This document shows, piece after piece, positions 34,278 to 42,638 of a stretch of 64,000 nucleotides of DNA. The translations under genes and the position numbers were made by a program. The notes beneath the pieces are model-generated. The model saw nothing but the letters and a program-made list of their open reading frames with translations, made no database searches and was not told where the DNA came from. The stretch's first letter is position 1. Each line of letters starts with the position of its first letter. The stretch is from Cyanobacteria bacterium auto_48_18 (lineage in GTDB: Bacteria; Cyanobacteriota; Vampirovibrionia; Obscuribacterales; Obscuribacteraceae). Location of the stretch: the NCBI GenBank assembly GCA_036170915.1, contig JAVHQC010000033.1, positions 128,001 through 192,000 of the forward strand, written 5' to 3'.

Positions 34278-35012
34278 ATGCTCGACAATCATTACGCCAA
34301 TTCTAAGCTCGCTGAACTTTATGATTTTGATAGCGGATGGTCTAGCGATAGAGATTTCTATTTATCGCTCGCCGAATCTCAGCCTCAAATGATTTTAGAT
34401 CTCGGCTGTGGAACGGGCCTTCTTTGTAGTGCCTATGCGGGTAACGGTCATCAAGTTACTGGCGTTGATCCGTCGTCTGCCATGCTTGAAATCGCACGCA
34501 GAAAACCACATGGAGACAAAATTGAGTGGGTACAGTCCACTGCCCAGAGTTATAGGTCTGGCAAACTTTTTGATCTAATAATTATGACCGGTCACGCCTT
34601 CCAGGTCTTATTGAAAGACGCTGATATTCTAGAAACTTTTTCGACAATGCAGAAGCACCTGAAGCCAGGTGGTACTGTAGTTTTCGAATCTCGTAACCCC
34701 TTAATTGATTGGCAGAATGAATGGGACTACGAGATGGTAATTGATTTGCCAAAAGGAAAGGTTACAGAGTCAAGGCGATTTCTCGCGATGAATAGCGATT
34801 TGATGAAATTCGAATTGCGATACCAGTTTTCTGATGAGACTTTGATTTCTAAAAGTGAGCTTCGATTTTTGTCACAAGACGAAATCAATAAGCGCTTAAG
34901 TGCATCAGGCCTGAGTTGCAACAAAGTGTTGGGCGGCTGGGATGGTCGTCACTTTGACGAATCTTGCCGAGAGATGATTTTCATTGTCCATACAAGAACT
35001 AATTTAATTTGA
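34278..35012 (+). CDS. Class I SAM-dependent methyltransferase
   Basis: ILDLGCGTG, GVDPSSAML, FDLIIMTGHAFQ, HLKPGG. Confidence 0.9.
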   Translation: MLDNHYANSKLAELYDFDSGWSSDRDFYLSLAESQPQMILDLGCGTGLLCSAYAGNGHQVTGVDPSSAMLEIARRKPHGDKIEWVQSTAQSYRSGKLFDLIIMTGHAFQVLLKDADILETFSTMQKHLKPGGTVVFESRNPLIDWQNEWDYEMVIDLPKGKVTESRRFLAMNSDLMKFELRYQFSDETLISKSELRFLSQDEINKRLSASGLSCNKVLGGWDGRHFDESCREMIFIVHTRTNLI

Positions 35013-35943
35013 GCTCCCAGTTTTGGCCGGTCAAATGATGCCCAAAGCTGTAATGCTGCTCTTCCAATACCAATTGAAAACCTGCTTGTTCGTAAATTCT
35101 ACGGGCGGAATGAAGAATATCGTTTGTCCATAAAGTCATTTTCTGGTAGCCACGTTGCCTGGCGAATTTTATGCATTCTTGCACCAGGCGGCGACCGATG
35201 CCCAAGCCGCGTGCATGAGGTTCAACGTACAGCAGCCGCAACTTAGCTACTTCGTCGCTCTCTTTAACTACAAAGACGGAGCCAACTATTGCGTCGTTTA
35301 CCTCGGCAATCCAACAGTGTTCTTTTTCTGCATCGAAGTTGAGGATAAATTTGGCCGCTATTTCTGCAATCAGAGCTTCGAATTTTTCATCCCAGTTATA
35401 TTCTTGATTGTAGAGAACGGCCTGACGGTGAATGATCCAACCCATGTCACCAGGTTGGTGTTCTCGCAAGACATAAGCGGCAGTGTTTTTTGTGCGAGAG
35501 CTATCCAAAAGCTGCTGCACCAAATTAATCGCCTGAATAAGTTTATTCTGCTCATCTAGTGAGAGTGGCTTCAACATCGCCGCCACTTCTTTCTCTGACC
35601 GTGCATTGAGAGGCTCAAAAGCTGCGCGGCCCTTGTCAGTGAGCGACAGAATGTGCTGCCGGGCATCTTGTGCCGATGGTGATTTGGCAATTAATTTTTG
35701 TTTTTGGAAAGCGCTTAGTATCCGACTTAAATAACCGGGATCAATAGAGAGGTCTCGACACAAATCGCTGGCAGTTAAATTTTGACCGTGATAAAGCTCG
35801 TACAAAATTCTTACTTCAGTTAATGAAAATTGACTTTCTAATAATCCTTCATGCAGCACACCAATTTTTTGTGTGTAAAAACGATTAAATTCTCTAACTG
35901 TGGCCACACGCTTGTGTAGATCACTCTTCTTCAGGCTGGGCAT
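34999..35943 (-). CDS. MarR-HTH plus GNAT acetyltransferase fusion
   Basis: VREFNRFYT, SLTEVRILYEL, PGDMGWI, AKLRLLYVEPHARGLGIG. Confidence 0.92.
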   Translation of the reverse strand: MPSLKKSDLHKRVATVREFNRFYTQKIGVLHEGLLESQFSLTEVRILYELYHGQNLTASDLCRDLSIDPGYLSRILSAFQKQKLIAKSPSAQDARQHILSLTDKGRAAFEPLNARSEKEVAAMLKPLSLDEQNKLIQAINLVQQLLDSSRTKNTAAYVLREHQPGDMGWIIHRQAVLYNQEYNWDEKFEALIAEIAAKFILNFDAEKEHCWIAEVNDAIVGSVFVVKESDEVAKLRLLYVEPHARGLGIGRRLVQECIKFARQRGYQKMTLWTNDILHSARRIYEQAGFQLVLEEQHYSFGHHLTGQNWELKLN

Positions 35944-36079
35944 GCCTTGAAACCTCAAACCGATAAGGTTGATATTGTCAACGAAATTAGTTGACTTTGT
36001 CAACTATCTCCCTAAATTCTCTACGCTGTTAGTTAGCAGCTATACATCTATTTCTCTATTTATGCGGTTTGAGTGCTAT

Positions 36080-36107
36080 TTGCACATTTGCAAACACGTG
36101 CTATATT
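36080..36107 (+). promoter_or_regulatory. Sigma70-like promoter, tRNA module 1
   Basis: TTGCAC-16 nt-TATATT with extended TG, 14 nt before tRNA-Gly. Confidence 0.55.
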
Positions 36108-36121
36108 GAAAAAACGTTGAT

Positions 36122-36195
36122 GCGGATTTGGCACATTGGTTGTGCACTAGTCTTCCAAACTAGCGAAAAGAGTTCGATTCTCTTATTCCGCTCCA
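36122..36195 (+). tRNA. tRNA-Gly(TCC)
   Basis: Cloverleaf: GCGGATT/ATTCCGC, CTAGT-CTTCCAA-ACTAG, TTCGATT loop, T73, CCA. Confidence 0.92.
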
Positions 36196-36201
36196 TTTTT
36201 A

Positions 36202-36305
36202 GGTGAATGAAATGAGTTCAGTGATTCGGGTAATGAAACGTAATTATGGCAGACCTTATATGTCTGCTGATCGTTTTGTCACACCCGTTTTGGATTCTAA
36301 TCACC
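36202..36305 (+). ncRNA. Putative structured leader RNA, copy 1
   Basis: Nested pairings GGTGA/TCACC, GAGTTC/GGATTC, CGGGT/ACCCG, GAAACG/CGTTTT, GGCAGAC/GTCTGCT; ATG follows at 36306. Confidence 0.55.
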
Positions 36306-36390
36306 ATGTTTCAACAAGTACAACCATTCCGAAGACCACGTCTACCAGAGCTTAAAGCTTGGTGCTCTGGTTCGTTCGGAGAAAAAACAC

Positions 36391-36466
36391 GCCCATGTAG
36401 CTCAAAAGCAGAGCATTCGCCTTGTAAGCGAGAGGTAGCGGGAGCATTACCACGCCTTGGGCTCCA
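36391..36466 (+). tRNA. tRNA-Thr(TGT), atypical T-arm
   Basis: GCCCATG/CTTGGGC, TTCGC-CTTGTAA-GCGAG, T-loop AGCATTA, CCA. Confidence 0.8.
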
Positions 36467-36488
36467 TTTTTCTCCAATTCAAAAATTT

Positions 36489-36560
36489 GCGCACGTGGTC
36501 TACTGGATGGGCACCGTTCTTCTAAAGCGGCTTAAGCAAGTTCGATTCTTGCCGTGCGTG
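36489..36560 (+). tRNA. tRNA-Arg(TCT)
   Basis: GCGCACG/CGTGCGT, CCGTT-CTTCTAA-AGCGG, GCAAG-TTCGATT-CTTGC; no encoded CCA. Confidence 0.88.
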
Positions 36561-36584
36561 AGTTTTGTACAAGGAGATTTTTTT

Positions 36585-36657
36585 AGATCGCTAGTTCAAT
36601 TGGTTAGAATCCTGACTCTTAATCAGCGAGATCCAAGTTCGATCCTTGGGCGGTCTA
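36585..36657 (+). tRNA. tRNA-Lys(CTT)
   Basis: AGATCGC/GCGGTCT, CTGA-CTCTTAA-TCAG, CCAAG-TTCGATC-CTTGG. Confidence 0.87.
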
Positions 36658-36668
36658 TTGTTGTTTTG

Positions 36669-36740
36669 CCTCTGATAGCACAATGGCGGTGCAGCTCTTT
36701 TACACAGAGATGGTTCTACGTTCAAGTCGTAGTCAGAGGA
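36669..36740 (+). tRNA. tRNA-Val(TAC)
   Basis: CCTCTGA/TCAGAGG, CTCT-TTTACAC-AGAG, CTACG-TTCAAGT-CGTAG. Confidence 0.87.
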
Positions 36741-36744
36741 CTAA

Positions 36745-36819
36745 TGCGTTATAGCTCAGTGGTAGAGCGGTCGCCTGTTAAGCGAATGATCCCTGGTTCG
36801 ATCCCAGGTAACGCAGCCA
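36745..36819 (+). tRNA. tRNA-Asn(GTT)
   Basis: TGCGTTA/TAACGCA, TCGC-CTGTTAA-GCGA, canonical D and T arms, G73, CCA. Confidence 0.93.
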
Positions 36820-36822
36820 TTT

Positions 36823-36894
36823 TCCACTGTCGTCTAATAGCAAGACTTCCAGCTCATAACTGGAATAATGTTGGTGCAAATCCAGCTAGTGGAA
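36823..36894 (+). tRNA. tRNA with CAT anticodon (Met or Ile2), atypical T-loop
   Basis: TCCACTG/TAGTGGA, TCCAG-CTCATAA-CTGGA, T-loop TGCAAAT. Confidence 0.82.
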
Positions 36895-36912
36895 TATTCC
36901 AAAAAAAAGTTA

Positions 36913-36942
36913 TTGCGCAGTTTCGCTGCCCTGTGATATGTT
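36913..36942 (+). promoter_or_regulatory. Sigma70-like internal promoter, tRNA module 2
   Basis: A-tract, TTGCGC-18 nt-TATGTT with extended TG, just upstream of hairpin 2. Confidence 0.5.
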
Positions 36943-36964
36943 GAGCAAAGTTGAAGTCAGGAAA

Positions 36965-37076
36965 GTTTCCAATGAAAGCCGTTCTCCAAAATTTGTATAG
37001 CATGAACGATAGACAGCCTCGGGGCTGCTTCTTATCGTTTGTCGTGCCTGTAAATTTCATTGGAGTATTTGGAAAT
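36965..37076 (+). ncRNA. Putative structured leader RNA, copy 2
   Basis: TTTCCAA/TTGGAAA, CTCCAA/TTGGAG, AAATTTGTA/TGTAAATTT, GCATGA/TCGTGC, AACGATAG/TTATCGTT, CAGCC-TCGG-GGCTG; ATG at 37075. Confidence 0.6.
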
Positions 37077-37141
37077 GAGACCAACACAATTAGTTTGCGA
37101 ATTACACCGCCGTCTACCAGAGCATAATGCTGGGTTGATAT

Positions 37142-37216
37142 GGCCGTGTAGTTTAGTGGTAAAACGCGCTCCTGATGAGAGTGTTAGCGATTGTTCGATT
37201 CAATCCATGGCCTCCA
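37142..37216 (+). tRNA. tRNA-Ile(GAT), atypical (G37, T73)
   Basis: GGCCGTG/CATGGCC, CGCTC-CTGATGA-GAGTG, GATTG-TTCGATT-CAATC, TCCA. Confidence 0.85.
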
Positions 37217-37275
37217 TATTCTTTCACCGATGCCGGTGCGGCACCGCAGATGATACCGCATGCTCGCCGGCTTTT

Positions 37276-37347
37276 GCTCCAATAGCCCAATGCAGAGGCA
37301 GCAGATTTAAACCCTGCAAAGTGAGGACTCATGCCCCTCTTGGAGCA
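37276..37347 (+). tRNA. tRNA-Leu(TAA), short variable arm, degenerate T-arm (possibly pseudo-tRNA)
   Basis: GCTCCAA/TTGGAGC, GCAG-ATTTAAACC-CTGC, T-loop CTCATGC. Confidence 0.68.
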
Positions 37348-37350
37348 CTC

Positions 37351-37422
37351 GCCCTATTACCCCAATGTAGAGGGAATAGTTTCAAAAACTATAAAGTCTC
37401 AGTTCGCGCCTGAGATAGGGCA
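37351..37422 (+). tRNA. tRNA-Leu(CAA), short variable arm
   Basis: GCCCTAT/ATAGGGC, ATAGT-TTCAAAA-ACTAT, CTCAG-TTCGCGC-CTGAG. Confidence 0.8.
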
Positions 37423-37425
37423 TTT

Positions 37426-37502
37426 GGTTCTGAAGATAAACCAGCAGAGTCGCCTCGTTGTCAGCGAGGAAATAGCGGGGGCAGCACCCGTCAGAACCGC
37501 CA
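37426..37502 (+). tRNA. tRNA-Asp(GTC), atypical D and T loops
   Basis: GGTTCTG/CAGAACC, CCTCG-TTGTCAG-CGAGG, T-loop GGCAGCA, G73, CCA. Confidence 0.8.
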
Positions 37503-37517
37503 TTTTTTTTGATATAT

Positions 37518-37603
37518 CGGCATGTGGGTGAGTGGTCGAAACCAGGACTCTGTAAAAGTTCTCCCTAAAAAGCACATTCGTTCGAATCGAATCATGCCGA
37601 CCA
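37518..37603 (+). tRNA. tRNA-Tyr(GTA) with C1-G72 pair
   Basis: CGGCATG/CATGCCG, A73, CCA; GGACT-CTGTAAA-AGTTC; long variable region; ATTCG-TTCGAAT-CGAAT. Confidence 0.87.
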
Positions 37604-41388: not shown

Positions 41389-42024
41389 TTATTTGCTATT
41401 TTGCGGCTCTATGCTAAATCCTAATTCTCCGGCCGTCTTCTGCAGGGTTTGTTTCAGGCTCGAGTGACTTAGGGGGATGCTGCTGATTACCTTTAAAGCG
41501 CTTCGAGACCGCTCGTAAAGAGCAAGTGCCAGTTCGTCATTGTGAGCGTTGCCAAAAATCAATCCATCGAGTTGTTTGTAGATAAAGAGCGTCTCGTAAA
41601 AATATCGTGACCATTTTTGGCTTAGTGAATGGTCGCTGTCTTTGCACAGTGCAGCCACTGAGCCTGCTCTCATAGCACCATCTCCTCTTAAATCTAAGAG
41701 CATTAGCTCTCTTTCGATTTCAAAGCCGCTCAATTGCCAACTAGCGTATTGAATGATTCGCGTATCTCCGAAGATTTCAACCAGGCAGCCTGAAAGCGTT
41801 GCACCGGCATATAAAATTCCTCGATGGGGATCTAGCTCAGGGCCGCTTGCATTGTCGGTGTGATGATCAAAGCGTTTATGTGGGCCATGACTGCGAAAAC
41901 TGATTGCAGTCGCATCGTATGATGTTGGGTCAAACATGCGAACAAACTTCGACCCTCGAGGAGCGGTGAACCAAACTGGGTTGGGTGCAACCACGGGCGG
42001 TGGCGGCATAATGATTACCATCAA
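41389..42024 (-). CDS. RES-domain toxin (putative NAD+-consuming)
   Basis: RFDHH, ILYAG, CLVEIFGD, LLDLRG, SQKWSR..Y, DGLIF, LALYER. Confidence 0.8.
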   Translation of the reverse strand: MMVIIMPPPPVVAPNPVWFTAPRGSKFVRMFDPTSYDATAISFRSHGPHKRFDHHTDNASGPELDPHRGILYAGATLSGCLVEIFGDTRIIQYASWQLSGFEIERELMLLDLRGDGAMRAGSVAALCKDSDHSLSQKWSRYFYETLFIYKQLDGLIFGNAHNDELALALYERSRSALKVISSIPLSHSSLKQTLQKTAGELGFSIEPQNSK

Positions 42025-42638
42025 GCCACCCCGACAGAACGTGCCTCGCGCAATACCCGTTCTGTGTCGCCGTGCCTCAAAATATGAATCGGTGAATCAC
42101 CATCGAACACTGCATTTGGTGTCACAAGCCAACTTACCTTACTAAGCAAACTACCAGACAGGTCTTTCAAAACCTCAGTTAAACCGGACACCGTCCCATC
42201 TGGGCCTGTAGGGTCGAATTGAAAGAGCGGTAGTCTCATTACATTTGATTCTATAAGACCGATCAACTTGTTCTCGCGTATGCGATCATGAATAGTTTGT
42301 TTTGAAACACCAAGCATTTCTGCAGCTTCAATCGAGCCAATAGAATTGTCTAGAAGCTCGCGTCTGCGTTTAAAGAAGTTGTATAAGCTAGTCACTTCCA
42401 GCGATTTGGCCTCATGAGGAGTAAATCTTTTGATGCCCAAAAGCTCAGCAAGAGCGGGATCTATTTCCTGATTGCGCTCGGCGGAAACGCTGGACATGCG
42501 ACTCAAGAGACAGGCGACTCCCTCTGGGCCTAGAGTGTCTACAAAAAAGCGTGCTGCTGCTTCATCACTTCCAAGTTCTTGAAAGTATTTTTGCAACATG
42601 TCGACGGCAACCATCTGGTTTTTGGCCTTGGCACGCAT
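42021..42638 (-). CDS. Antitoxin-like protein (HTH plus Xre/MbcA-type C-terminal domain)
   Basis: EAAEMLGVSKQTI HTH; LPLFQF; WLVTPNAVFDGDSPIHIL; ATGA overlap with RES gene. Confidence 0.78.
   Translation of the reverse strand: MRAKAKNQMVAVDMLQKYFQELGSDEAAARFFVDTLGPEGVACLLSRMSSVSAERNQEIDPALAELLGIKRFTPHEAKSLEVTSLYNFFKRRRELLDNSIGSIEAAEMLGVSKQTIHDRIRENKLIGLIESNVMRLPLFQFDPTGPDGTVSGLTEVLKDLSGSLLSKVSWLVTPNAVFDGDSPIHILRHGDTERVLREARSVGVA

Follow-up and report, generated by a model that had tools for sequence, protein, structure and literature searches.

In the attenuators of amino-acid operons (trpL, hisL, thrL), the leader is rich in the operon's codons and its completion reports that supply is enough. 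In translational attenuation of the ermC type, the upstream open reading frame (uORF) pairs with the downstream ribosome-binding site and a stall switches the gene on, and arrest peptides of the SecM/RAPP kind carry a conserved arrest motif in the nascent peptide. In toiL-topAI of E. coli, too, a single hairpin joins the uORF to the ribosome-binding site of the gene behind it; the uORF ends before the gene, a stall turns the gene on and Rho gives polarity (PMC12121999). In the coat-lysis pairs of MS2 and fr, with overlaps of -50 (MS2) and -38 (fr), termination on the coat gene activates a lysis start hidden in structure (PMC12548453). Occlusion of a start by upstream ribosomes has been described as well (PMC13285730). 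The cryptic trn operon (L-array) of Anabaena PCC 7120 holds spare tRNAs that are thought to serve under translational stress, and it is under TrcR repressor-operator control at its promoter (PMC8421152, PMC10272220).

We analysed a tRNA array in a 64,000-nucleotide stretch of DNA (the window) from Cyanobacteria bacterium auto_48_18, which belongs to the Obscuribacteraceae, a family of non-photosynthetic cyanobacterial relatives and the host of the modules described below. An earlier note, made from this sequence, had proposed that a translation-sensing leader encoding an RLPE peptide heads each half of the array. Its general idea of a translation-sensing leader for spare tRNAs is strongly supported by comparison with relatives, while the peptide and the frame that it named are not. 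Judged from sequence comparison, the element is real, family-wide and other than the one named there.

All features lie on the forward (+) strand. The array starts with a sigma70-like promoter found by consensus scan (promoter 1, 36079..36107), with an extended -10 and an A-rich stretch downstream. It is followed by tRNA-Gly(TCC) (36122..36195; ARAGORN/Rfam), by the decayed 5' remnant of a tRNA-Ala that comparison shows to be intact in most congeners (36361..36390), by tRNA-Thr(TGT), missed by ARAGORN and called by Rfam (36391..36463), and by the tRNAs Arg(TCT), Lys(CTT), Val(TAC), Asn(GTT) and Met(CAT) (36488..36895). A putative promoter 2 of weak consensus (36913..36942) was recognised by eye and by its conservation in relatives. 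Behind it come tRNA-Ile(GAT), Leu(TAA) and Leu(CAA) (37142..37422), a tRNA-Asp(GTC)-like gene seen by eye and uncalled by ARAGORN and Rfam (37426..37502) and tRNA-Tyr(GTA) (37518..37603). The content is 9 ARAGORN tRNAs together with Thr(TGT) and Leu(TAA) by Rfam and the Asp(GTC)-like gene by eye. The anticodons of most of these tRNAs are also present elsewhere in the source genome, and the array was found in 13/14 congeners. The Rfam covariance models gave tRNA only at gathering score on the array and no T-box match up to E=10, and a known RNA family or cis-regulator for the leaders was rejected on these tRNA-only matches. No TrcR-type operator repeats were noticed by eye at promoter 1.

The two leucine tRNAs (TAA, CAA; 37276-37422) are only 72 nt long and are without the long variable arm. 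The second array of the source genome (G000:C33:15652-16690; loci L021, L055), headed by a third module, contains 10 tRNAs behind the same promoter, and between them the two arrays serve almost every amino acid. Some genera have, 5' of the switch, a Met tRNA that carries a 1:72 mismatch and by eye resembles an initiator (e.g. L015, 1420-1574); this tRNA and tRNA-Gly(TCC) are positioned outside the control of the switch. The neighbourhood also includes a gene for a MarR-GNAT fusion, which points away from the promoter of the array (34999-35946), and a RES-domain gene after an HTH/Rv2175c-like gene, likely a toxin-antitoxin pair (41389-42638).

We are highly confident of the anatomy of the element as read from sequence: a weak-start frame, uORF-A, which is codon-matched to the array, lies over a hairpin that would hide the start of a second frame, ORF-B, and ends inside ORF-B, which is itself open through the tRNA genes. 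The long hairpins at 36202..36305 and 36965..37076, predicted by folding, and the ATGs at their 3' bases (36306 and 37075) are present as the earlier note had described them. Its order of one sigma70-like promoter and one hairpin for each module applies in part, since promoter 2 was missed by the consensus scan and tRNA-Gly sits between promoter 1 and hairpin 1. The hairpins are more stable than shuffled sequences, with z-scores of -3.05 (hairpin 1) and -2.82 (hairpin 2). The covariation check that had been suggested for them was positive for the module 1 hairpin, with double changes in 5/29 pairs among 12 sequences and 0/500 shuffles, the tested structure being itself derived from the same 12 sequences.

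uORF-A has a Shine-Dalgarno (SD) sequence, starts with ATG or GTG at the 5' base of the hairpin and crosses the hairpin. uORF-A1 (36212..36355) has 47 codons and a TAA stop, and its SD (36201..36206) is predicted to be paired in the hairpin base (covariation helix 1); uORF-A2 (36972..37127), with its SD at 36959..36962, has 51 codons and a TAA stop. ATG and GTG occur at the equivalent start position in different genomes, with GTG in 17/27 modules, and TAA is the stop in 22/27. ORF-B has its own conserved SD and an ATG at the 3' base. Hairpin 1 pairs the start regions of uORF-A1 and ORF-B1, and in the predicted folds the weak SD of ORF-B1 (36292..36294) is paired with codons 2-3 of uORF-A1 and the GGAG of ORF-B2 (37062..37065) with the codon 5 region of uORF-A2. 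Such pairing of the leader with the downstream SD is indicated in the modules by predicted structure and covariation; in most of them the predicted anti-SD of ORF-B falls at nt +1 to +16 of uORF-A. The uORF-A stop lies about 50 nt 3' of the ORF-B ATG in the window, 17-86 nt inside ORF-B across 60 modules and at +35 to +59 of ORF-B in 22/27. Additionally, the end of uORF-A can form a small helix with the 5' strand of the first tRNA: with 18 nt, the predicted energy was -7.4 kcal/mol, compared with -5.9 kcal/mol when permuted (p=3e-4, n=23), and a first test, restricted to nt 1-7 of the tRNA, gave no significant difference (p=0.15).

The hairpin-base ATGs had been taken as the starts of short leaders. 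Their frames are actually 212 codons long for ORF-B1 (36306..36944), in the +1 frame relative to uORF-A1 and running through the Thr, Arg, Lys, Val, Asn and Met tRNAs, and 112 codons for ORF-B2 (37075..37413), which runs through tRNA-Ile and tRNA-Leu(TAA) and stops inside tRNA-Leu(CAA), leaving the Asp-like gene and tRNA-Tyr past its end. The stop of ORF-B1 falls within the -10 region of the putative promoter 2; in six congeners ORF-B1 is fused in frame to uORF-A2, and in another genus it ends at the uORF-A2 start region, so that the modules are chained by fusion or abutment. Across 60 modules, ORF-B spans at least 3 ARAGORN tRNAs in 41, with a maximum of nine, compared with at most one tRNA, in 5/120 cases, for the other two frames, and with 3.6% of 699 starts that reach three tRNAs in control arrays without the module. 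With random phases, the observed openness would have a probability of 1.8e-3 in module 1, 0.11 in module 2 and 5.5e-3 in the second array. tRNAs common to several arrays mostly hold their phase at varying distances while they are covered, and several lose it past the stop. Length changes are multiples of 3 in 47/64 cases inside ORF-B, 17/64 past its stop and 7/7 in uORF-A alone, these counts being pairwise events of incomplete independence. The open frames over up to nine tRNAs, together with the in-frame indels, argue for selection on the continuity of ORF-B.

The product of ORF-B shows no conservation and matches no Pfam family; the peptides are dictated by the tRNA sequence and differ between arrays. 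The stop codons are mixed (10/10/7 in 27 modules), the stop position is not under selection, and many arrays have tRNAs beyond it. Past the uORF-A stop, the use of matched codons in ORF-B is neutral (z about 0.5), and upstream of its start the B frame is open no longer than the third frame. Comparison of the modules thus shows ORF-B preserved as an open frame across tRNA genes, without conservation of its protein. Coverage was lacking in 11 modules, of which 4 enter an unusual tRNA-Ala missed by ARAGORN and 7 (of 60; six genomes of one genus and one of another) stop before any intact tRNA; uORF-A is well matched even in these 7.

Some features of individual arrays are worth recording. The tRNA at the Asn position after Arg is 3 nt shorter in L005, L006, L010, L013 and L014, where it is called Leu(TAA) or undetermined, and the shortening leaves ORF-B in frame. 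Extra SD-ATG starts occur in distal spacers (L002, L154, L158, L166, L182, L186) with frames that cover the next tRNAs; starts of this kind cover the next tRNA in 8/15 cases, compared with 4/23 in other arrays, which is suggestive only. A short palindrome recurs 5' of a Gln tRNA, before the first intact tRNA, in L147, L148, L152, L161 and L162, and may be a REP-like repeat or an operator.

The codons of uORF-A were then compared with the tRNAs of the array. In uORF-A1, 23/46 codons specify amino acids carried by the downstream tRNAs; in uORF-A2 only 9/50 match its present tRNAs, which is consistent with a recent rearrangement of module 2. Over 27 modules, the amino acids of the A frame match the downstream tRNAs with z=8.7, a test that includes eight hand-added tRNA assignments, compared with -2.7 and -0.9 for the other frames. 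The match persists in narrower sets (z=7.9 in 22 modules and z=5.9 in 12 more distant ones), and 19/19 testable amino acids are commoner in uORF-A when the array contains the corresponding tRNA. The choice among synonymous codons tracks the anticodon as well, with 241 matches observed and 196 expected in 371 codons (z=5.1); the modules used for these codon tests, all from this one family, were representatives picked by the analyst and are mutually related, so that the z-scores overstate independence. The match is found in every segment of uORF-A, which samples 4-14 tRNAs at once and also matches tRNAs beyond the ORF-B stop (z=6.0). Matched codons are rare at codons 2-3, reach 0.54-0.68 at positions 4-7, peak from 7-8 and in the A/B overlap, and have a density of 59% in the overlap compared with 35%. 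The idea of two outputs, in which the overlap codons sense the covered tRNAs only, was initially borne out and was weakened once non-covering modules were added. No peptide motif is common to the modules in uORF-A or ORF-B. Therefore, the comparison supports the view that uORF-A is a tRNA-matched codon sensor, composed of codons that its own array's tRNAs decode. The sensor frame would be this one, which starts at the 5' base of the hairpin, rather than the frame of the hairpin-base ATG.

The identical 13-mer that drew attention to the locus is indeed present at 36339 and 37111, 33 and 36 nt past the two ATGs and in frame with them. It ends, however, one base before the TAA of the overlapping -1 frame: with this TAA, it forms the last codons and stop of uORF-A1 (36339..36355) and the end of uORF-A2 (37111..37127), where the predicted fold places it opposite the 5' end of tRNA-Ile in a helix. 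In module 1 of relatives, the equivalent site abuts the tRNA-Ala that is decayed in the window and is part of the small helix with its 5' end. An extended 21-nt motif occurs at only 2 places in the 4.9-Mb genome, both in the window; the 13-mer by itself is found at one more place, unrelated to these two. Most simply, the second 13-mer of the window would be a local copy from module 1.

The A/B design is present in 38 Obscuribacteraceae genomes of 11 genera, with array loci fetched from the family genomes by similarity and 82 clusters in 78 loci analysed as a non-exhaustive set. A hairpin search that left the frame relation free and did not require tRNA coverage gave 85 matches, in which uORF-A passes the ORF-B start in +1 in 60, in +2 in 2 and in frame in 6, and ends earlier in 17. 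An ORF-first search, alternative starts included, gave 73 vs 5 rows for the frame relation; 7 weak rows were dropped from this set before the peptides were listed. A genome-wide scan blind to tRNAs retained 3 hits in 16 candidates, with the two modules of the window on top. The same architecture before stress genes was sought in a relaxed scan, and its 55 rows formed no obvious translation-stress set by eye. Outside the family, single-tRNA matches only were obtained in 201 class genomes, phages and plasmids with searches that depend on sequence similarity and would not detect the design in a lineage of separate origin, and 9 matches of the hairpin motif in viral contigs had no tRNAs behind them. 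In one genome of the family (G101), uORF-A of module 1, which has a net -1 indel, reaches its stop within the hairpin loop (L166, 2030-2150) and ORF-B of module 2 is in the +2 frame relative to uORF-A (L166, 2586-2715); ORF-B is nevertheless open through 3-4 tRNAs (module 1: three).

We also looked for the machinery of termination. No Rho was found above the TIGR00767 cut-off in 61 genomes, which are incomplete, and Rho polarity as the output was rejected because Rho was not found. No intrinsic terminator was found between the uORF-A stop and the first tRNA in A/B modules, so the attenuator of the earlier note has no terminator-type counterpart in these modules. The U-tracts at tRNA 3' ends were considered as hidden terminators and dropped, covered, uncovered and control tRNAs being alike. 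In the source genome only 67 canonical intrinsic terminators stand behind 3335 long ORFs, and 6% of the 67 lie within 12 nt of a stop codon. A second leader type is also seen in the family (L146, L171-L176, L183, L191, L192), a short ORF that is rich by eye in the amino acids of the array, whose end is, by eye, able to pair with a conserved intrinsic terminator, and that precedes short arrays and long L-arrays.

Taken together, we consider it probable that the module is a two-ribosome, codon-matched switch that sends ribosomes through the spare tRNAs. In healthy translation, ribosomes would finish uORF-A and thereby switch ORF-B on, as termination on the MS2 coat gene activates the lysis gene. 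RNase P requires a folded tRNA, and ribosomes on ORF-B would unfold the pre-tRNAs, which would not be processed, the transcript being treated like an mRNA. When a matched tRNA is scarce, ribosomes would stall on uORF-A, cover the ORF-B start or let it close again, and unwind the small helix sequestering the first tRNA's 5' strand; with ORF-B silent, the tRNAs of the array would fold and mature. We infer the effect of ORF-B translation on the tRNAs, as well as the sign of the response (shortage turns the tRNAs on), the latter from feedback logic and from sister arrays of the family, where the leader end can pair with the terminator, so that finishing the leader should stop transcription. Most likely, then, maturation of the spare tRNAs would be confined to times when their supply to the ribosomes is short.

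Several observations bear on this repressor model. What is read seems to be the completion of uORF-A and not the place of a stall, because every segment of uORF-A is matched, and an overlap of about 38-60 nt, equal to the termination-activated overlap of fr and MS2, favours coupling by termination. The small helix between the end of uORF-A and the first tRNA fits the model as well. In the folding model, opening the ORF-B start costs about 13 kcal/mol without a ribosome, about 5 with a ribosome at codons 2-3 and, with the ribosome footprint, 9-13 from codon 8 onward. For most codons this leans towards a stall that closes ORF-B: matched codons are rare where modelled access to its start is best and frequent where the start is closed or covered. 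The repressor model is weakened by the 7 modules in which ORF-B ends early yet uORF-A is tuned, by the tRNAs beyond the ORF-B stop that uORF-A also senses, by the matched codons at 4-7, where a stall would partly open ORF-B, and by the window's own module 2, which is poorly matched. Coupling by completion is inapplicable to G101 module 1, because its uORF-A stops in the hairpin loop, and the +2 frame of G101 module 2 also departs from the model.

The early-ending ORF-B, the tRNAs beyond it and G101 fit better with the opposite sign, in which a stall on uORF-A opens ORF-B by the logic of ermC and toiL, and the tRNAs fold behind ribosomes that aid expression by accompanying RNA polymerase or protecting the RNA. 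We regard this alternative as rather unlikely. The position of the anti-SD at the start of uORF-A in most modules is the toiL geometry (PMC12121999); ORF-B need not reach intact tRNAs in the 7 early-ending modules, stays open through three tRNAs in G101 module 1 where uORF-A ends in the loop, and the few canonical terminators near stop codons are compatible with coupling. On whether a stall would switch ORF-B on, the folding model leans the other way at most codons, and G101 fits such a switch. Against the alternative, the densest matched codons are in the overlap, where a stalled ribosome covers the ORF-B start. ORF-B does not avoid matched codons past the uORF-A stop, there is no U-tract excess behind covered tRNAs, and the missing Rho in the 61 genomes speaks against it too.

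The fixed frame relation (+1 in 60/62 modules with uORF-A passing the ORF-B start out of frame) and the dense matched codons in the overlap would also be explained if hungry codons there gave +1 shifts from uORF-A to ORF-B. This is very improbable in view of the conserved SD and ATG that ORF-B has of its own, of a B frame no more open than the third frame upstream of its start, of the one +2 module and of the lack of a common slippery motif. It is improbable, though less so, that uORF-A acts by another route, such as hairpin cleavage or weak termination, with ORF-B as a by-product or a functional peptide: T-rich bases after several ORF-B starts and the unselected ORF-B stop would suit this, but the frames kept open over as many as nine tRNAs and the in-frame indels require selection on continuity, and peptides dictated by tRNA sequence, which vary between arrays and lack a Pfam match, speak against a functional product. 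Least credible is the earlier reading, in which ribosomes stall on a short RLPE arrest peptide begun at the hairpin-base ATG and the array is attenuated in this way. The 13-mer shared in frame by both modules and an RPP run in many congeners speak for it. RLPE itself, however, occurs in 0/13 congeners, whose module 1 has RPPA or a one-residue variant in 11, RPPE in 1 and FPPA in 1, and it is missing from other modules and genera; the 13-mer is absent from module 2 of relatives, so that neither stands as a conserved, selected signal. There is no stop after the motif in that frame, and synonymous variation, which had been offered as a check for a peptide, points to the other frame, the substitutions in the overlap being oftener silent in frame A (19/48) than in frame B (10/48).

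Under the preferred repressor model, ribosome traffic would act as a repressor of tRNA maturation, a product-less frame in which the tRNA genes are embedded would be under selection and be switched by a leader that samples precisely the array's anticodons, and a protein-free feedback would free the backup tRNAs; we lean towards this set of novelties with some reserve. Release of tRNAs in such a loop would follow the loss of a specific tRNA, e.g. by anticodon-nuclease attack. tRNA genes are usually taken as non-coding, and frames across them are dismissed as annotation noise. Here these frames seem to be selected and tied to a sensor, and ribosomes are apparently sent through pre-tRNAs deliberately. 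If this is true, it would add a new level to the control of tRNAs, in organisms without detected Rho, and would make testable the purpose of spare tRNA arrays and whether a cell senses the loss of a single tRNA species. The module, of about 150 nt, is portable and could act as a reporter of tRNA depletion.

In the open-licence literature we found no codon-matched control of tRNA arrays and no reading frame maintained across tRNA genes; these loci might be listed in the supplementary array tables of PMC8421152. Like the L-array of Anabaena PCC 7120, the array of the window is supernumerary, while the Anabaena array has no A/B-type leader and no frame over >3 tRNAs. The sister arrays of the family share with the A/B modules a leader frame, codon-rich by eye, before spare tRNAs, but their leader stops before a terminator and no second ORF through the tRNAs is described for them. 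Unlike SecM/RAPP, the A/B modules have neither RLPE among congeners nor any motif common to uORF-A or ORF-B.

As in toiL and ermC, uORF-A pairs with the SD of ORF-B in one hairpin; it differs from them in that uORF-A passes the ORF-B start, ORF-B covers tRNA genes without a conserved product, and Rho is not found. As in MS2 and fr, the ORF-B start is structured and the overlap is of similar length (22/27 at +35 to +59), whereas here the first of the two frames serves as a codon sensor and the second seems to matter for ribosome passage and not for protein. Like trpL, hisL and thrL, uORF-A is a short leader enriched in those codons that its operon helps to keep supplied. Unlike these, the A/B module governs tRNA genes, sampling 4-14 tRNAs down to the anticodon, and has a second ORF through the tRNAs as output in place of a terminator and antiterminator. 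To judge from its sequence, the module, which fails the defining outputs of both attenuator classes, would work like a leader-peptide attenuator combined with a coupling of the MS2 type.
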